A stretch of 42,281 nucleotides of DNA from a virus (taxonomy: Duplodnaviria; Heunggongvirae; Uroviricota; Caudoviricetes): the IMG/VR virus record IMGVR_UViG_2778261538_000003; one strand, 5' to 3'. Position numbers and translations under genes: made by a program. Below are positions 1 to 42,281 of the stretch, one piece after another (position 1 is the stretch's first letter; every line of letters starts with the position of its first letter). Below the pieces are notes generated by a model. It was not told the DNA's origin, ran no database searches, and saw only the letters and a list, made by a program, of their open reading frames with translations.

Positions 1-267
1 ATGCGCAGAAAAGAATCAAACGTTAGCAGTTTGCCGGAACTCACCAATTTTGAGGTAAGCTATTCCCTAGTTACCAATGAAGTTTACTTGTCTGCATCCT
101 TCACTGATAACATGGCCTGTATACCAAACTGGCCCTTACAAGAATTTCCGGATCAACTAATATGCATTTCTCGAGCAAAAGCTATTGCCCTAATCGAAGA
201 GCTCCAGAAGACCATCGACTATATGGACGCAGGAATCGATCGACAATCAGGTAGCCTGCTCCAGTAG
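1..267 (+). CDS. hypothetical protein, possibly 5'-truncated by the window edge
   Basis: Open frame running from position 1; no recognisable motif; lies in the AT-rich region left of the prophage tail-fibre module. Confidence 0.3.
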   Translation: MRRKESNVSSLPELTNFEVSYSLVTNEVYLSASFTDNMACIPNWPLQEFPDQLICISRAKAIALIEELQKTIDYMDAGIDRQSGSLLQ

Positions 268-400
268 CTGGCGAGTTTTATACTCGTTCCCTGCAACAAT
301 GGGCTTTTGGTAAGGCACTCACAAATAAGGAATTCGTTAAGGCTTTTGTTCTGGAGACTCTGAAAGATACAAGGAATCAGTTGATGGCTGGTTTGATCAT

Positions 401-441
401 ACTAATTAATATATTGTCAGACTCACAATATATTAATTAGT
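401..441. repeat. perfect 17-bp inverted repeat with 7-bp spacer (ACTAATTAATATATTGT-cagactc-ACAATATATTAATTAGT)
   Basis: Read directly: 425-441 is the exact reverse complement of 401-417. AT-rich, no flanking T-run, so more likely a protein-binding operator than a terminator. Confidence 0.8.
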
Positions 442-568
442 GGTAGAACATAAAACCGAGTTCTTGACTTTCAATAGCTATTATATGCGATCAACAACCT
501 TAACCACCTCCTTATATTTTATGAGATACTCAAACAATTTAAATTTATGAGCAAAGGAAAATAATAAA

Positions 569-1414
569 GTGAATAAAAATCCCTGGGATATTCCAGCATG
601 GCACGCTCTGGGCCGAGAAGCATCTTTAGTTACACAGCTCATTGGTTCTGGGGCAACAGCCATAGGTAAAGCCAATTATGCAGACAAAATAGGTGAATAT
701 TACACAGCATTTTTTGGGCTTTCTGTAGGTTTTGAGAGACTTGCTAAACTAATACTTGTTGCACACTATGCCATTGAACACAAAGGGAAAATGCCTGATG
801 AGAATATTGTAAGAAAATTTGGACATAAGCTCATTGAATTAACCAACGAGGTTGATAGTATTTCTAAAAAAATGCAACTATCTCTGAGATATTCACGTCC
901 TACACATAAAATTACCTACAAAATACTTGAATGTTTAGATTCCTTTGCTGATGCCCGACGGGGACGTTACGCAAATTTCTCCTCATTAAGCAGCCCCAAT
1001 TTAACCAATAATGAACCTATTAATAAATGGTGGGGAGAAGTAGCCGAGAGTATCCTTGAAAAACATTATTATTATACAGTTGAACAAAGACGTGTTGAAG
1101 AAAATGCTAGGTTTATCAATGCCACTCTTTCACCGTATACAACGGTCATGTATATGAATGAAAGTACCAACATTATGCAAGACCTTATATCAGCCTCCAT
1201 CCGTACTGGACAAAATACCATTGTTCAAAAGTGGGGAAGATTCTATTCTCTTAGCATCGCTCGTTGGCTTGCCACAGTATTAGCAGAACTGTCTGATATA
1301 GCTTCTCATAAATATGGAATAATTAGTTTTTATGGCCTTAGTGAACATTGTTGCAGTTATATAGTTGAAGATAGTTTTTTAAAAAACAGAAAAATATGGC
1401 CACTTCGCCAATAG
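569..1414 (+). CDS. hypothetical protein (AT-rich cargo gene; candidate defence or abortive-infection function)
   Basis: 281-codon ORF with GTG start preceded by AGGA; visibly lower GC than the phage backbone; no family recognised; contains R-x5-H (RYSRPTH) of uncertain meaning. Confidence 0.55.
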   Translation: MNKNPWDIPAWHALGREASLVTQLIGSGATAIGKANYADKIGEYYTAFFGLSVGFERLAKLILVAHYAIEHKGKMPDENIVRKFGHKLIELTNEVDSISKKMQLSLRYSRPTHKITYKILECLDSFADARRGRYANFSSLSSPNLTNNEPINKWWGEVAESILEKHYYYTVEQRRVEENARFINATLSPYTTVMYMNESTNIMQDLISASIRTGQNTIVQKWGRFYSLSIARWLATVLAELSDIASHKYGIISFYGLSEHCCSYIVEDSFLKNRKIWPLRQ

Positions 1415-1418
1415 TTAA

Positions 1419-1733
1419 CTAGAAAATCTGCATAAGGGGGAGAAATCCCCCACCTGTAATAACATAACTACTAAAATTAACACCTTGTTCGCACAACTCC
1501 TCCACCAGCACGACAAGATGCCGCACACTGCGCCCCAGCCGATCCAGCTTCCAGACAACCAGAGTGTCACCTGCCGATAATGTCCTGAGCAGTTTTTTCA
1601 GTCCCGGCCTTTCGGACTTTGTACCGCTTATCTTGTCTTCAAAAAACAGCTCGCATCCTGCACAGTTCAGCGCATTACGTTGTAGATCTGTGTTCTGGTC
1701 ATTTGTTGACACACGTACATAGCCAATAAGCAT
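1419..1733 (-). pseudogene. truncated Gin/Pin/Hin-family DNA invertase (serine recombinase catalytic core only, C-terminal HTH missing)
   Basis: N-terminus MLIGYVRVSTNDQ...GDTLVVWKLDRLGRS matches the resolvase/invertase catalytic motif; ATG at 1733; homology ends near VNFSS and the frame stops after about 104 codons versus roughly 190 expected. Confidence 0.75.
1421..1451 (-). terminator. possible rho-independent terminator (GGGGG-agaaat-CCCCC hairpin then T-rich tract on minus strand)
   Basis: Hairpin at 1436-1451 followed on the minus strand by TTATGCAGATTTTCT; it encodes the non-homologous C-terminal tail of the truncated invertase frame. Confidence 0.35.
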
Positions 1734-2850: not shown

Positions 2851-3265
2851 GCCATTCAATATCGGGTGCTGTTGACGTATCAACACGCATCAGCAGCACA
2901 CGGTATTTCTTCCATTGGGTGAGAGTTGAAGTTTCTTCATCAGTTGCGATACCAGCATCAACAGCATCCTGACGCCAGGATATTTCACTGTCAGCTTTTG
3001 CACGAAATGTGGCTTTCATGTTTTCTGCATCTGATATTTTCTGTTCTGGTGAAAGCGGCGGCTCATCAACCCATGCAAGGGTCCCTGAAACCATTCCCAG
3101 CATTTTTCCTGTTGGCTTATTTCCCCCATTAAATCTGACAGCATCCTCATCGCTGATTTCAATACCATCCTGCGGCCATGTCCCCTCCTTGATATAACTT
3201 TCATATAGCGCTGCGTTGTAGATTGCATTTTCGGACGGGCTGTAAACACTTTTAACTTTATTCAT
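2822..3265 (-). CDS. tail fibre assembly protein (Tfa/U-like, expressed orientation)
   Basis: 147 aa ending ...VDTSTAPDIEWPTPPA; immediately downstream of the minus-strand tail-fibre gene. Confidence 0.8.
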   Translation of the reverse strand: MNKVKSVYSPSENAIYNAALYESYIKEGTWPQDGIEISDEDAVRFNGGNKPTGKMLGMVSGTLAWVDEPPLSPEQKISDAENMKATFRAKADSEISWRQDAVDAGIATDEETSTLTQWKKYRVLLMRVDTSTAPDIEWPTPPAAQAR

Positions 3266-3269
3266 TCTG

Positions 3270-4016
3270 TTATCTCCCTTTCGCTATATAGCAAAGATTA
3301 AACCCACCGGCGCCTGACATACGGGCTGTAAAACCCGTTCTTGAAGTACCAGTTGAGTTAACTCCATAAGCAGGCATGGTTGCTGGAGAAAGCAGAGACT
3401 CCTGGATATCTGCCATTGTCAGTGTAATTGATTCGACCCGCGCGGGGAAAGGTAGCGGGAAAACAACATTCGTCCCTGTCTGTCCAACGGGGAAACCGAA
3501 AATACCCCATTGTGTAATTACCCCATCCGGCCCCTTACTCCATCCAGATTTAGGATTCGGCCAGTCTGCTGCTCCAGAGTGCCCCGTTGTAAAACTACTC
3601 ATATCTGGTACTTGCCCGGTATCCGTTCCGACGTTCCTCGTTGCCGCTTCTCCCAAACCAAGGTTTTCGAGAGCTGTTTTCACCGTGCCGTCCGATTTGA
3701 TATCGCCAAACGGATTCTTGCGGCTCAGGTATTCAACAGCAAACCCCGATCCCAGCAATTCAACAAAACCGGGCAGATCACCATTATCAAGCACATCCCG
3801 TTGCGTTTTATCACTTACAAACTGGGCCAGAGCTGCAGCAATAAAGCTGGCCTGCCGAATAACCTTATTGACTTGCGCACTGGAGGCTTTCCCTGCTGTA
3901 AATCCAGATAAAAGCGCGGGCAACGCTTCCCATTCCTCCTGCGATATAACATTGGCATTTCGATCCGTTGCAAACGCTTTAAAGTCATTTTTCGCCATCA
4001 GAGTAATACTCCCCAT
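3270..4016 (-). CDS. tail fibre protein
   Basis: 248 aa, Gly/Thr/Ser-rich; last structural gene of the tail operon, followed by Tfa. Confidence 0.7.
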   Translation of the reverse strand: MGSITLMAKNDFKAFATDRNANVISQEEWEALPALLSGFTAGKASSAQVNKVIRQASFIAAALAQFVSDKTQRDVLDNGDLPGFVELLGSGFAVEYLSRKNPFGDIKSDGTVKTALENLGLGEAATRNVGTDTGQVPDMSSFTTGHSGAADWPNPKSGWSKGPDGVITQWGIFGFPVGQTGTNVVFPLPFPARVESITLTMADIQESLLSPATMPAYGVNSTGTSRTGFTARMSGAGGFNLCYIAKGR

Positions 4017-26124: not shown

Positions 26125-28386
26125 TTACAATCCAGATTGCAAAATTTCGCAAGATTTATATATTTCGCGCAATTCTTCGTTGCTGAAATCGTTATTTTTT
26201 ACAAGAATCCAAATCCTATATACAAACCCGTCAATTTTTACGCGTACGGGTTCCCGCTTTGTTCTTTCTTTCAAAATGCGAGTAATATGCTTCTGGTTAA
26301 TTTCTACATCCATTCCTGCTTCTGCCAGTATTGCGTTAACAATTTGTTGATAAGTCATTGCTGGCACAGGCGGATTATCCAGGATTTCAATAAGAGCAGC
26401 CTCCACATCGCTCTTATTGCTTTCAATCATCAGAAGGCGTTCTTTCGTCTCGGGGGCGCGCTGCCAGTTAAAGCGAGACAGGTCAACGCCCATCAGATAC
26501 CAGTACACCTGGGCGATAAAGTCGCTGTCGCTTAGCGCACCGTACAGGCTGGCGTAATGCTCTTCAGTTGCGGCGAAGTCAGGGCCCCCCAGCACAGCGA
26601 TACGTCGGTCTTCCTCTGGCAGCGCCAGCGCATCAAAGTGGTTGGTGTAGAACAGAAAGCCGGTGTATATATCCATCGTTTTTTTGCTGCCATATTTGCG
26701 GTTCACTTCAAACCGTGGTTCTGTCAGCACGTCACGGATCTTATCGTTCACCTCATACCGCTTATCATTTTCGCGCACCTCGTCAATGGTGCATAGAAGC
26801 GTATTGTACAGATAGTCATGGAACTGGTTATCGCACAGGATCTTCATGCGAGTACGAGCACAGTTCCACGGACCAAGCACGCGCTCCATTAACTGGCTGA
26901 CCCATCCTCTGCCCGTACCATGTGCGGAAGCCACATGCAGAATAGAAATCGGGCATCGACGCTCCGGACGCTGAACCATCCACCCCAGACGGGCGATGAA
27001 AAACTCGCGCTGCCAGGCATCAGGTACCAGATACGCCATATGATTAAGGAACGTGGACACCTTACTTGTATCCGCTGTACGTGGATGCTCAGGCATATAA
27101 AATTCGTTTATCTCAAACCGCCCGTCGAAACGCTCGATAATACGTCCCGCACCGGGCTTATAGCCTGTCGTCTCAGCAATCTTCTTATGCCGATGCTCTA
27201 TCCACCGTTTGGTTGCGGGAGTTGGTTGCCCTTTCCCTTCTGGCGGGAACTGGTAAGGCGCCATCAGGTTTTTGAACGACTTCATATCCATCATGCACTG
27301 ATATGGCGGTCGGCTAAGATCACATACCTGGTCACCCTCGATGACGTAGATAAAGCGTTCCAGAAAATGAGCTGTCATATCTGTATTAATATCGGTAAAT
27401 TCAGGCTTATCGCCATCTTCAACCACCGTGAGATCTTCGAACAGGGATTGCGTATAGCCGTAGCCTTCCAGCCAGTCGGCATCAGTAAGCCCCGCATCGG
27501 TGTTGTGCATGCTTTTAAAATGTCCCTGTTCAAATCCCCCCGTCCCTTTTGGGAAATACTTAATGGATGTTTCGCTGCAACCGTTGCTGTATTCTGACTC
27601 ATCCCGAAACGGTTTCAGATTGCGGGAACCATCAGAGCTGACTGACAGAGTCCACCCGTTCGCGTCAAGCCAGTCGGCGACATCATCTGTCGCGGAAGGA
27701 TCAACACAGGAAAGATCACGCTGACGTCCTGCACCTGCGGTATAGCTGTCTTTCACGGGTAAGTTATCCGCCAGACGCTGCCACAGGCTTTCGAGCTGTT
27801 CAGATGTAATTTTCAGAGGTTCGCCGGGCAGACCGCAGTCCCACTGAATACGTTCGCCTGCCGGATGGGTACCACAAGCCACAAACTGCTGGCCCTTAGC
27901 GAGCAGCTCTATTTGTTTGTTTTCGCCTTCCAGGCGGTGACCACGTTTACGGTAGTCGCCATCAACAGCAATCAGGTACAGGCATTTATGACTGTCAGCC
28001 CGCCAGCGACGTGGCGGAAGTTCCCCCAGGCATGACAGGATAATATTGCGTACGATCTCCTGCATCCCGGCGTCATTGATATCGCAGTCCAGAGCCACCA
28101 CCCCGTCGCCAGTACGAACGCAAATACCGTAATCGGGTTCGTTCGACCACCGGGCAAAATCGTTTTCCGTAACAACATAGTTAGCCCAGTCGGGGATACC
28201 AACAACCTTACGTTGGCCATTGTAGCGACTGGGGGTTTTGCCGAAATTATGAGACAGCTTGCTATTAGGCGACAGTTCTGCACAGGGATTGGACACCACA
28301 GGTAAAAGCCTGTCTGTCATCCCCAACACCAGATCGAAGTGGAACCACTCATCGGGCGTAGCTCCCCATGGTTTGTTATCAGACAT
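26125..28386 (-). CDS. replication protein with N-terminal Prim-Pol (AEP-type primase-polymerase) domain and C-terminal primase/NTPase-like region
   Basis: Motifs GDGVVALDCDIND, SHKCLYLIAV and IELLAKGQQFVACGTHPAG fit the three Prim-Pol motifs; 753 aa; next to the iteron array. Confidence 0.65.
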   Translation of the reverse strand: MSDNKPWGATPDEWFHFDLVLGMTDRLLPVVSNPCAELSPNSKLSHNFGKTPSRYNGQRKVVGIPDWANYVVTENDFARWSNEPDYGICVRTGDGVVALDCDINDAGMQEIVRNIILSCLGELPPRRWRADSHKCLYLIAVDGDYRKRGHRLEGENKQIELLAKGQQFVACGTHPAGERIQWDCGLPGEPLKITSEQLESLWQRLADNLPVKDSYTAGAGRQRDLSCVDPSATDDVADWLDANGWTLSVSSDGSRNLKPFRDESEYSNGCSETSIKYFPKGTGGFEQGHFKSMHNTDAGLTDADWLEGYGYTQSLFEDLTVVEDGDKPEFTDINTDMTAHFLERFIYVIEGDQVCDLSRPPYQCMMDMKSFKNLMAPYQFPPEGKGQPTPATKRWIEHRHKKIAETTGYKPGAGRIIERFDGRFEINEFYMPEHPRTADTSKVSTFLNHMAYLVPDAWQREFFIARLGWMVQRPERRCPISILHVASAHGTGRGWVSQLMERVLGPWNCARTRMKILCDNQFHDYLYNTLLCTIDEVRENDKRYEVNDKIRDVLTEPRFEVNRKYGSKKTMDIYTGFLFYTNHFDALALPEEDRRIAVLGGPDFAATEEHYASLYGALSDSDFIAQVYWYLMGVDLSRFNWQRAPETKERLLMIESNKSDVEAALIEILDNPPVPAMTYQQIVNAILAEAGMDVEINQKHITRILKERTKREPVRVKIDGFVYRIWILVKNNDFSNEELREIYKSCEILQSGL

Positions 28387-36348: not shown

Positions 36349-37110
36349 ATGCAGGAACTAACTGAAATGCCGATCAACTATCCATACCCGAGAGAATCTT
36401 TTCCTGACTTTTTGAGGGAGTGTGGGTTCACCAATTTTTCCCACGAACAGCGTGAGACTTATGACTGCTATCGTTTAACGAATGGCGTAATTGTTAACCT
36501 TTACACCACCCGGACCATTCAGTTTCAAGGGAACCCTCAAGAACGTCCCAATGTTGAAACTGCAATAATGTCCCATTTAGGAACGCCCCCCACGGCAACA
36601 CCACTAGCCGTAGAACAGCCATCTGAGCTTCCCAAAAAGATATTCATTGTTCACGGCCATGACCATACTGCAAAGGAACAACTTGAGCTAATCCTTCATA
36701 AACTTGGATTACCAGACCATTTCATTTTGCAGAATACGGGAGGGACTGGACTCACCATTATTGAAGAGCTTGAACGTGAAATTGGGCAAGGACAAACTGC
36801 TACTCGTTTCGGGATTGTTCTTTTGACACCTGATGATATGGGATACTCAAAGCGCGCCGGTGAAGCAGAAATCCAACCCCGCGCAAGACAGAACGTTGTA
36901 CTCGAGATGGGTATGCTTCTTTCGTCCTTAGGGCGCAGCAATGTAGCAATCCTTCAGAAACAGCACCTAGAACAGCCTTCTGATGCTAACGGGATTTTGT
37001 ATCTGAATTTCAACGACCATGTACGTGAAACAGTTCCTCGTCTAGTGCAACGGTTACAAAATTCTGGTTTCGAATTTACACAAGCTCAAATAGCTAACGC
37101 TTCCTCGTAA
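36349..37110 (+). CDS. TIR-like domain protein (COG4271-type) with unknown N-terminal domain
   Basis: C-terminal half carries KIFIVHGHD ... FGIVLLTPDD ... RARQNVVLEMGML ... VAIL, matching the TIR-like nucleotide-binding fold as recalled; own terminator downstream. Confidence 0.6.
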   Translation: MQELTEMPINYPYPRESFPDFLRECGFTNFSHEQRETYDCYRLTNGVIVNLYTTRTIQFQGNPQERPNVETAIMSHLGTPPTATPLAVEQPSELPKKIFIVHGHDHTAKEQLELILHKLGLPDHFILQNTGGTGLTIIEELEREIGQGQTATRFGIVLLTPDDMGYSKRAGEAEIQPRARQNVVLEMGMLLSSLGRSNVAILQKQHLEQPSDANGILYLNFNDHVRETVPRLVQRLQNSGFEFTQAQIANASS

Positions 37111-40214: not shown

Positions 40215-40411
40215 GCGAGAAACCCGACGATTTACTCACCCCGGATGAAGTATGCCAAAAGTTAGGTATTACACAGAAAACGCTATGTGAGTGGAATATT
40301 AAGCATCGTCATCGGGCTATCCTGGCACCAATTCGTTTCAGTGCAAAAGTAGTTCGTTATGAGCGCCGAAATATCGACGCTTTTATTCAAAAATGTCGCA
40401 GCCAGTATTAA
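40211..40411 (+). CDS. AlpA/Xis-like excisionase or regulatory protein
   Basis: 66 aa with HTH (LTPDEVCQKLGITQKTLCEW); adjacent to and overlapping the integrase gene end. Confidence 0.7.
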   Translation: MSEKPDDLLTPDEVCQKLGITQKTLCEWNIKHRHRAILAPIRFSAKVVRYERRNIDAFIQKCRSQY

Positions 40412-41811
40412 CCTCGCCGCCGTAGCAATGCCACCTGCGCAAGTATGCTCCGCTCGTGAGCCTCGAAAGCTTCGCGCTTCAACGCAATCTCTTCCTGTAA
40501 AATCTCATCAGAAAAGTCGTAATGTTCTGCCATCGGGTCATCTGACTTGCTGGAGTGGTGAAGGCAAAGGAGGCTGATTTCCCTTCGGTCTGAGCGGGAA
40601 TAGCCTCTTTCCTTCATCAAGGCAATAACATTGCTCTTAAGGAATTTACGGCACATCGTATTAAATGCACCGTCTTTCCCTTTAACAGTCCCATCATGTT
40701 TTATTCCTTTTACAGCCCCGTCCGGGCTGTATGTTTTCACCAGCTTATCCAGTGATCGTTTTGAAAATGGCTGCATTGGATCACGTGGCTGCAAAAATAC
40801 ATAATCCCTGTTGCACTCAGGAACTGAATCACGCCAGGCTTTCTGCTCGTCGATAATCCGCCGGATCTCAGGGGTTATCGGCAGGCGGAAAGCCTTTTGT
40901 GTTTTCATAGCCCCTCGCATGCCGATAACCCCTTCCGGATAAACAATTTCACCAGCCTCCTCGTGAACGTAGTCCCAGCGCAGGTTATGGACATTAATCG
41001 GACGAACACCAGTGATGATCATGAAGCGAACAGCATTCTTCTGGTGTACAGAGGTGCAGGCAGCAACATTGAGCCAGAGTCGGGCGATTGATTCAATATC
41101 GGTAAAAAGCCGTGTGGGGGTAGGTTTCTGTACGCGGGAGGAAACATAATCATCTGGCAGACTGGCGGCAACATTGCGGCCGTTGCAAAGAGTAGGTGCG
41201 CAGAACTTCCAGAACCGACGGAGCTCGGCAAACAACTCCAGGGCGTTATTGTTCGAGCGAGTAGCGATCCACTCGTCCAGCACTTCCACCAGCCGATTGT
41301 ATGTTACGTCGCTGAACACCTCGCGCTCGCCGAACGTTGCTTTAATCCGGTCGATACGCACCCCGTAGGTTGTGAAACTGTCCGGGCTCAGCTTCTGCCG
41401 GGCGACTTTGGCTTTGAGGTCATCCCGGTACATTTCCAGCGCTGCATGTACGGACTCTGCCCGCAGGCCACCGTCAGCCATACCTAGCGCTTTTTCGCGC
41501 GCCAGCTGGATAGCGAGCTCCGGCCACTCGCCGAGCTTTTTACCTTTGAGGCCCATCTTTTTTGGAAACTCGGCGTAAAATGTAACCTTACCGGCTTTGC
41601 TGAAATCGATACGGAGATAGTTCTCTTTTTCGTATTTGGAACGGCGAGCCACGCCGGAAGCAGCGAGGATGATTTTGGCGGCAGCAACACAGATTTTCAT
41701 GTGTGCGCTGGTATAGGGGGGTTTACAGGCGTCCCATTTTTCAGATGCGGCTAAAACATCGTCATTATTGGGGCTATCCGGATTATGTGTTACAGTGCGC
41801 GGCATTCTCAA
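40408..41811 (-). CDS. tyrosine-type site-specific integrase
   Basis: 467 aa; C-terminal region with TGVRPINVHNLRWDYV and a terminal ...HYDF tyrosine context; located at the prophage-host junction. Confidence 0.75.
   Translation of the reverse strand: MRMPRTVTHNPDSPNNDDVLAASEKWDACKPPYTSAHMKICVAAAKIILAASGVARRSKYEKENYLRIDFSKAGKVTFYAEFPKKMGLKGKKLGEWPELAIQLAREKALGMADGGLRAESVHAALEMYRDDLKAKVARQKLSPDSFTTYGVRIDRIKATFGEREVFSDVTYNRLVEVLDEWIATRSNNNALELFAELRRFWKFCAPTLCNGRNVAASLPDDYVSSRVQKPTPTRLFTDIESIARLWLNVAACTSVHQKNAVRFMIITGVRPINVHNLRWDYVHEEAGEIVYPEGVIGMRGAMKTQKAFRLPITPEIRRIIDEQKAWRDSVPECNRDYVFLQPRDPMQPFSKRSLDKLVKTYSPDGAVKGIKHDGTVKGKDGAFNTMCRKFLKSNVIALMKERGYSRSDRREISLLCLHHSSKSDDPMAEHYDFSDEILQEEIALKREAFEAHERSILAQVALLRRRG

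Positions 41812-42011: not shown

Positions 42012-42281
<270 letters not shown>

Follow-up and report, generated by a model that had tools for sequence, protein, structure and literature searches.

A low-GC cargo gene beside a truncated tail-fiber invertase in an Escherichia coli prophage is a candidate HEPN-like abortive-infection gene

The 42,281-nucleotide (nt) sequence IMGVR_UViG_2778261538_000003, hereafter the window (the whole stretch of DNA analyzed here), is nearly the whole of an Escherichia coli prophage, and the chromosomes of strain 82.0312 and of many others match it at 99.9 to 100% identity. Close to its left end, positions 283 to 1466 have replaced resident phage genes at the end of the tail-fiber region, a conclusion that we hold with high confidence, and the one intact gene within these positions encodes a 281-amino acid (aa) protein. 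The best overall explanation of this gene, to which we give a little better than an even chance, is that it is a self-contained HEPN-like abortive-infection defense gene. Anti-phage defense as such, the role that an earlier reading of the window from its letters alone (the original prediction) had suspected for cargo at this junction, is probable; genomic context supports it strongly and the predicted fold modestly, short of proof. Action as a HEPN ribonuclease (RNase), which leans on a structural model, is a more tentative assignment and falls somewhat below an even chance.

Results

A 1.18-kb Module Has Replaced Resident Genes at the Tail-Fiber End

Sister prophages integrated at the same yfhL attachment (att) site in strains 2013C-4465 and Rb-50 carry, in order, an 88-aa open reading frame (ORF), a 215-aa gene, an intact 183-aa pinE, and the invertible tail-fiber segment. 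When compared with these intact-pin sisters, the window aligned at positions 1 to 282 (96%) and again from 1467 on (94%), with nothing in between. Thus, the 215-aa gene and the last ∼94 pin codons have been replaced by the sequence of 283 to 1466. The displaced stretch, as seen in the sister prophage L016 (5283 to 6327), measures 1,045 bp and holds the 215-aa gene together with the 3′ end of pinE. The event itself was an illegitimate recombination, in which a 1.18-kb AT-rich block took the place of the 215-aa cargo gene and the 3′ half of pin that had resided there. The same two junctions are present in L006 and L017, lineages that are 4 to 5% diverged (95 to 96% identical) across the region, which indicates one old event that later spread. 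The module occurs in 44 of 5,426 complete E. coli genomes; it is chromosomal in all of them and, in every carrier examined, lies at this locus. It contains a remnant of a dinI gene, a palindrome, and one intact gene, the 281-aa gene (Table 1).

The sister alignment bears out the proposal, made in the original prediction, that an AT-rich module had replaced the 3′ end of the invertase gene, and corrects its extent, which had been given as 1 to 1465. Likewise, the low GC content noted leftward of the junction holds for the module itself (36.3%), whereas positions 1 to 282 (43.6%) are not cargo. The ORF at 1 to 267, which had been taken for a partial member of the cargo, is complete. It corresponds to the full-length coding sequence WP_001253101 of sister prophage L016 and is part of a conserved phage backbone, as positions 1 to 282 recur at 95 to 96% identity in prophages with different cargo in about 80 other E. 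coli genomes. This left arm also shows 80% nt identity to a gene of Salmonella phage SEN34.

The 281-aa Gene Belongs to a Large Family Absent from Defense Libraries

Searches with the 281-aa protein returned no match in Pfam (E ≤ 1), NCBIfam, PADLOC, or PHROGs, and 46 diverse members of its family likewise gave nothing meaningful. Against PADLOC-DB v2.0.0, 0 families were found at E ≤ 1 for the window protein, while three single-member noise matches (E 0.006 to 0.014) were obtained among the 46 members. Profile searches of Protein Data Bank (PDB) sequences with two family alignments produced only noise, a literature search by protein accession yielded nothing, and the database names of the homologs are always "hypothetical protein." The earlier view that the gene has no recognizable family thus held through profile searches and through the Foldseek comparison described below. 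The protein is also not McrA-like, as had been judged by eye: it has no HNH or other Pfam match, and its predicted fold is all-alpha.

The family comprises 962 clusters at 50% identity (486 word-indexed homologs), nearly all of about 270 to 285 aa and single-domain. Its spread is patchy, extending over Gamma-, Alpha-, and Betaproteobacteria, Mycobacterium, Nitrospinota, and Gemmatimonadota. The exact 281-aa protein is found on at least 1,000 contigs. Comparison with ten homologs gave dN/dS values of 0.04 to 0.14, with dS saturated or near-saturated; on these sequence comparisons, the gene is real and under purifying selection. Residues E17, E56, R57, K60, H86, Y134, and W154 are invariant in all relatives, including those from IncX plasmids and Rhodococcus, and R133, N136, and R232 are nearly so.

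Genomic context was surveyed at 57 species-representative loci. In 56 of these the GC content of the gene is below that of its flanks (median difference −10.5 points). The contexts have in common about 15 to 40 nt upstream of the start codon and the ORF alone, and nothing 3′ of the stop codon of the window copy is shared with other contexts. Thus, the gene appears to move as a bare unit of ribosome-binding site (RBS) and ORF.

A distant homolog is encoded by the IncX1/X3 plasmid pB16EC1060-4 (L018 1847 to 2668); it is 273 aa long, aligns at 33% over the N-terminal ∼160 residues, and keeps the invariant residues. It adjoins a resolvase gene and lies near hns, hha, and topB; the RsfS label that it bears in one source is a mislabel.

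Relatives of the Gene Lie in Restriction-Modification Operons and Other Defense Loci

The genomic context of relatives is the strongest functional evidence. In 10 of the 57 species, the homolog is part of an operon with the order hsdM-hsdS-homolog-hsdR, on the same strand and with overlapping or abutting ORFs, in which Pfam identified HsdM_N/N6_Mtase, Methylase_S, and HSDR_N/ResIII/SWI2_SNF2 domains. Two of these hsdS-hsdR slots also hold a ∼240-aa TIR protein that matches PADLOC PDC-S35 (E 1e-95), and two other slots (Erythrobacter and Qipengyuania; L071 and L085 9368 to 9982) contain a 204-aa protein between hsdS and the homolog that weakly matches PD-T4-4_B (E 5e-7). Small defense genes seem to accumulate in the hsdS-hsdR gap. 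In Enterobacter and Klebsiella the homolog instead follows hsdR (by 86 bp in Enterobacter), on an island that is bounded by an integrase and also carries HNH, Vsr, and DUF4917 genes.

Prophage copies show a similar pattern. A P2-like prophage of Morganella carries the homolog between the tail-fiber assembly gene and the sheath gene (G-FI), a position that we take to be the Z/fun slot of P2. In P2-like prophages of Serratia, gpA and the portal gene flank the homolog, which has a PvuII restriction-modification (R-M) system as its neighbor. Homologs were therefore found in both slots of P2-like hotspot cargo (old/tin between gpA and portal, Z/fun between G and FI), although the window phage itself is not P2-like. 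The gpA-portal interval of P2 is an experimentally validated defense hotspot (PMC9122126). Klebsiella variicola and Citrobacter carry the homolog at a prophage end.

Outside these settings, the Pectobacterium homolog comes directly after the Gabija genes gajA-gajB, and the Chromohalobacter homolog is about 3.5 kb from Thoeris. In Vibrio cholerae (L088), the homolog forms a single cassette between 133-nt repeats resembling V. cholerae repeats (2884 to 3016 and 3883 to 4015), ten copies of which occur in 8.9 kb, and thus sits in the chromosomal integron, where its neighbors are SieB, RES-Xre, and acetyltransferase cassettes. The homologs of Vibrio vulnificus (L090 and L091) lie in array-like runs of same-strand small ORFs, as judged from layout only. 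Esos, a validated V. cholerae integron cassette whose only domain is described as HEPN-like, may belong to the 281-aa family.

All-against-all comparison of the flanks of the 57 loci for a conserved partner gene, such as an antitoxin or sensor, recovered the hsdMSR set only, and the other neighbors were heterogeneous. The combination of no conserved partner gene with frequent placement in defense slots points to a self-contained single-gene module.

The Predicted Fold Resembles a HEPN Domain with a Noncanonical Active Site

An AlphaFold2 model built on a 34-sequence alignment was all-alpha, with a predicted local distance difference test (pLDDT) score of 80.5, a predicted template modeling (pTM) score of 0.80, and low confidence at residues 1 to 7, 129 to 146, and 270 to 281. 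Foldseek searches of the PDB and BFVD with this model returned nothing better than E 0.09. From the model we infer a HEPN-like bundle of four helices for the N-terminal ∼130 residues. Helix 41 to 70 carries the E-x3-[KR] motif of HEPN helix 2 (PMC3710099) in the form of E56 and K60, which all 46 of 46 diverse members keep, as do the IncX and Rhodococcus proteins. H86, also present in 46/46, lies in an insert that comes after helix 2 and before the remaining core helices, and R133 (45/46) follows helix 114 to 127, the third core helix, in a flexible loop at the place expected for the R of Rx4-6H. The active site appears to be noncanonical and of the AbiV/AF0298 type, in which case H86 would lie close to R133. 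The alternative of reading [R/K]82-x3-H86 as the HEPN motif was rejected, as the spacing is wrong, the first position varies among R, K, M, and V, and the stretch precedes the helix. The C-terminal helical half (about residues 150 to 275) would be a sensor or regulator.

Three known systems are instructive for comparison. In HEPN proteins of the AbiV/AF0298 type, the motif His has been lost, and an alternative His from an insert has been proposed to complete the active site (PMC3710099). The sequence of the 281-aa protein fits this pattern, with the Arg kept, the motif His lost, and a conserved His in the helix 2-helix 3 insert (helices taken from the AlphaFold2 model); in contrast, the HEPN and AbiV models of Pfam gave no match in the family, and the window protein is about twice the minimal HEPN size. 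HepS of the Salmonella prophage Gifsy-1 is a single-HEPN-domain abortive-infection anticodon nuclease (PMC13043305). However, HepS is 218 aa long and has a canonical R100-x4-H105, whereas the window protein, at 281 aa, lacks the motif, has an extra C-terminal helical half, and shows no detectable sequence similarity to HepS.

The anticodon nuclease PrrC, which has a HEPN-type effector fold, is encoded in the EcoprrI locus between hsdS and hsdR (PMC3710099). This type Ic locus has the order hsdM-hsdS-prrC-hsdR, so that the position of PrrC is identical to that of the homologs in the 10 R-M-embedded species, and a HEPN-type effector fold, predicted in the case of the window protein, may be shared as well. 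Together, position and fold suggest the logic of a second line behind R-M. The two differ in that the N-terminal ABC-type ATPase, which in PrrC and RloC is fused to a C-terminal nuclease domain, is absent from the window protein (Pfam, NCBIfam), there is no sequence similarity to PrrC, and R-M linkage is missing from the window copy as from most of the family.

The Interval between Invertase and attL Is a Variable Cargo Site

Three states of this slot were found in the phage family: the 215-aa gene with an intact pin; the variant of strain IAI1, in which the 215-aa gene is accompanied by an Acyl_transf_3 acyltransferase and both pin and part of the invertible segment are gone; and the present module. 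The alternative cargo in the sisters and in IAI1 marks the interval from the tail-fiber module to attL as a variable cargo site. The displaced 215-aa protein (L016 5326 to 5973) has no Pfam or PADLOC match, and its gene is, as far as its sequence indicates, another uncharacterized cargo gene at the same site.

A comparable arrangement exists in the e14 element of K-12, where the order is tail fiber, pinE, mcrA, icd′, with mcrA directly between pinE and the icd′ att end. This gene order confirms the analogy to e14 drawn in the original prediction and, with the three states of the phage family, supports the status of the invertase-to-att junction as a cargo site. What the two loci share is a defense gene (a candidate one in the window) placed between the tail-fiber invertase gene and the att end, in a phage that is defective or temperate. 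McrA, however, is an HNH type IV restriction enzyme next to an intact pin, whereas the window protein is unrelated and its arrival truncated pin. To our knowledge, the slot between the tail-fiber invertase and attL has not previously been described as a hotspot.

The Invertase Is Truncated, yet the Tail-Fiber Segment Has Inverted Since

The ORF left by the replacement begins MLIGYVRVST and matches the Pfam Resolvase N-terminal domain alone (profile positions 2 to 98 of 145, E 1e-28). The C-terminal helix-turn-helix DNA-binding domain is absent from this ORF by Pfam; a complete Din invertase has about 183 to 190 aa. RefSeq labels the product "recombinase family protein, missing C-terminus." Nucleotide homology to pinE of e14 (93 to 95% identity) and to about 2,300 other pin-like genes stops at 1467 to 1473. 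The abrupt end of invertase homology recognized earlier is therefore genuine, and it lies at codon 89 rather than near codon 95 (∼1460).

The invertible tail-fiber segment is intact. In strain 82.0312 it lies in the opposite orientation (99.9% identical when reverse-complemented), and the flanks, including the truncated pin, are 100% identical. The opposite orientation beside the same truncated pin shows that inversion occurred after the truncation. The invertases Gin, Cin, Pin, and Hin are interchangeable, and a Din-family invertase acting in trans is presumably the simplest explanation of the continued inversion. Of 5,426 E. coli genomes, 2,374 contain pin-like sequences, and a second pin-like locus is present in at least one of the genomes that carry the module. 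The loss of pin would be collateral damage of the cargo swap.

Noncoding Anatomy of the Module and Coordinates of Features

The dinI-like remnant shows 74 to 76% nt identity to annotated dinI in 57 lambdoid/Stx phage records and several plasmids. Its position upstream of the 281-aa gene suggests, from sequence, that the module probably came from a different prophage with dinI upstream of the gene; a search of the E. coli genome, phage, and plasmid collections did not recover this donor arrangement. The palindrome that follows the remnant folds at −17 kcal/mol (z −4.6 to −5.2), and 0 of 200 shuffles were as stable. It is possibly the old terminator of the former dinI gene, an operator, or a recombination site. 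The promoter-like region upstream of the 281-aa gene is not conserved with the homologs elsewhere, and the GC hairpin downstream is not part of the unit common to homologs in other contexts. The 66 nt around this hairpin fold at −14.6 kcal/mol (z = −2.2), a modestly unusual stability. A hairpin terminator had been proposed at 1421 to 1451; the hairpin was rejected as a canonical intrinsic terminator, as it has no U-tract and the terminator scan made no call.

Table 1. Features of the window and of its immediate left flank
Feature	Coordinates	Strand	Details
attL	about −244 to −207 (i.e., ∼207–244 bp left of window position 1)		38-bp yfhL core, duplicated at both ends
Prophage left arm	1–282	+	Phage backbone; complete 88-aa ORF at 1–267; 43.6% GC
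Replacement (cargo) module	283–1466		1,184 bp; 36.3% GC vs. 49.6% in rest of window
dinI-like 3′ remnant	290–409	+	Frameshifted; translation ends in KESVDGWFDHTN and stop
Near-perfect AT-rich palindrome	401–441		20-nt arms, 1-nt spacer; just 3′ of dinI remnant, 5′ of 281-aa gene
Two weak sigma-70-like promoter matches	491–565	+	TCAACA-16-TATATT (491–518) and TTTAAA-16-AATAAT (538–565); 9/12 each; consensus matches only
Candidate defense gene, 281-aa predicted all-alpha protein	569–1414	+	GTG start; AGGAA RBS at 554–558
Truncated Din-family invertase (pin) pseudogene	1419–1733	−	89 Pin codons (1467–1733) plus 15 read-through codons; stop at 1419
GC hairpin	1436–1451		GGGGGA-GAAA-TCCCCC, 6-bp stem; between stop of 281-aa gene and pin breakpoint
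Invertible tail-fiber segment	1795–3666		20-nt inverted crossover sites at 1795–1814 and 3647–3666; intact
Tyrosine integrase	40408–41811	−	Adjoins attR
attR	42031–42068		Second copy of 38-bp yfhL core (ferredoxin gene)

The Module Lies within a Prophage Integrated in yfhL

The window element, a prophage of ∼42 kb and of the myovirus type, has the 5′ end of yfhL as its integration site. Homology to prophage-free genomes ends 207 bp left of window position 1, and leftward extension of the window, a step that the original prediction had suggested, located attL there. The start of yfhL is rebuilt by the phage end on the integrase side. The attL and attR cores and the position of the integrase place the module within the prophage, and its site is the extreme attL-proximal end, just past the tail-fiber genes.

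Several further observations concern the prophage. In strain 82.0312 an IS21 insertion (istAB) at 27084 to 27087 splits the primase/helicase gene; the window copy is without IS21, and with its replication gene intact the window prophage may be functional. Three GenBank "complete phage genomes" (ON470579, ON470588, and ON470593; vB_EcoM-606R2 and two others) carry the module and also the host genes tadA, yfhB, and yfhH. These host genes suggest that the records are in silico excised prophage regions, and the records were rejected as proof of packaging.

At 36349 to 37110 (plus strand), adjoining the phage DNA polymerase gene, the window encodes a protein of 253 aa whose TIR domain is of the CAP12/Pycsar type (Pfam PF10137, E 3e-31); the protein is a full-length match to the PADLOC candidate single-gene system PDC-S35 (E 1e-108). 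It shows 48% identity to the TIR protein of Acidocella (L056) that stands beside a homolog of the 281-aa protein in a type I R-M operon, so that the same two cargo families occur together in both places.

Discussion

The replacement described here is of a known kind, as HEPN-type abortive-infection genes linked to prophages or R-M systems and cargo swaps at hotspots have precedents, while the family itself is in no library that we searched. If the 281-aa protein is such an abortive-infection effector, it would be expressed from the lysogen and remain latent until a phage cue. For the prophage copy this cue would more likely be a phage protein, and in the R-M-embedded copies it could be inactivation of the R-M system, as for PrrC. 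The activated protein would then cleave tRNA or mRNA and halt translation, and this arrest (abortive infection) would protect the lysogen population and the prophage. Such a mechanism may be likened to those of HepS, Tha, AbiV, and PrrC/RloC. A bolder version, which we regard as speculative and would not bet on, is that the gene is the founder of an unrecognized, widespread family of single-gene abortive-infection RNases that have a noncanonical, AbiV-type HEPN site, travel as bare-ORF cassettes among type I R-M operons, integrons, P2 hotspots, and prophage ends, and act as a second line that fires once the first has been neutralized.

Several observations weigh against a self-contained HEPN-like defense gene. 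The canonical HEPN motif Rx4-6H, expected where helix 3 ends, is missing, as there is no His 4 to 6 residues after R133 (R-Y-A-N-F-S-S-L), and R133-Y134-x-N136 lies in the segment with pLDDT below 50 (129 to 146). At most of the 47 species loci outside R-M operons, the homolog is a lone low-GC insertion among housekeeping genes with few toxin-antitoxin or abortive-infection neighbors (some of these insertions lie beside an IS110 element), and the window copy has no linked R-M gene nearby. Some E. coli copies are truncated, as in L006 and in a 113-aa form found on 25 contigs. Moreover, in conjugative IncX plasmids of E. coli, Salmonella, and Klebsiella, more than 100 of which carry it, the distant homolog is a backbone gene, a placement that could reflect a different role in mobile elements.

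This last point is also an argument that what the gene offers mobile elements is something other than defense, whether anti-defense, addiction or maintenance, regulation, or the action of a noncatalytic nucleotide-binding HEPN-like protein. The lack of a conserved partner gene is compatible with such roles, hotspots also carry nondefense cargo (PMC9122126), and some HEPN domains are noncatalytic (PMC3710099). We nevertheless consider a nondefense benefit unlikely: an anti-restriction gene inside R-M operons would be implausible, the immediate neighbors in mobile contexts are overwhelmingly defense genes (R-M, Gabija, PDC-S35), and the invariant set of E, R, K, H, R, and Y suggests catalysis. 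A further possibility, to which we assign a slightly smaller chance, is that the protein is an accessory or back-up module working only with type I R-M, in the manner of PrrC, which is silenced by EcoprrI and freed by a phage anti-restriction factor; the prophage copy would then depend, in trans, on the hsd system of the host chromosome, or have no activity where there is none. The exact hsdS-hsdR placement in the 10 species and the position after hsdR in Enterobacter agree with this, and at least 16 HEPN clades are R-M-linked, with the same logic proposed for them (PMC3710099). However, 47 of the 57 species loci have no adjacent R-M system, nor do the P2 Z/fun, Gabija-adjacent, and integron copies or the window, and the protein has no PrrC-like ABC-ATPase domain. 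In addition, the hsdS-hsdR slot accommodates the PDC-S35 TIR protein, an unrelated stand-alone candidate, and may be a mere cargo site.

Finally, the module travels with a dinI pseudogene fragment and a destroyed pin, and some E. coli copies of the gene are truncated, as might be expected of inert recombination debris with a decaying ORF. We regard this as highly improbable, given that the ORF is intact, dN/dS is near 0.1 across genera, the identical protein is so common, the junction has been retained in the diverged lineages noted above, and the family is large and conserved in length. The reading of the 281-aa protein as a self-contained HEPN-like abortive-infection protein is thus the one that we favor.

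If this reading is correct, a large family of "hypothetical proteins," carried by Klebsiella, Enterobacter, Serratia, and Vibrio besides the many E. coli contigs, would be a new single-gene defense system, with candidate catalytic residues (E56, R57, K60, H86, and R133) at hand. The placement between hsdS and hsdR would make the idea derived from PrrC, an RNase back-up behind restriction, testable in a smaller and far more widespread protein. Should the prediction fail, the locus would represent an ordinary moron swap with an orphan gene. The locus adds a third prophage cargo slot, from the tail-fiber invertase to the att end, alongside pin-mcrA of e14, and it indicates that an exchange of cargo can cost a phage its own host-range switch without stopping inversion, which goes on presumably in trans.

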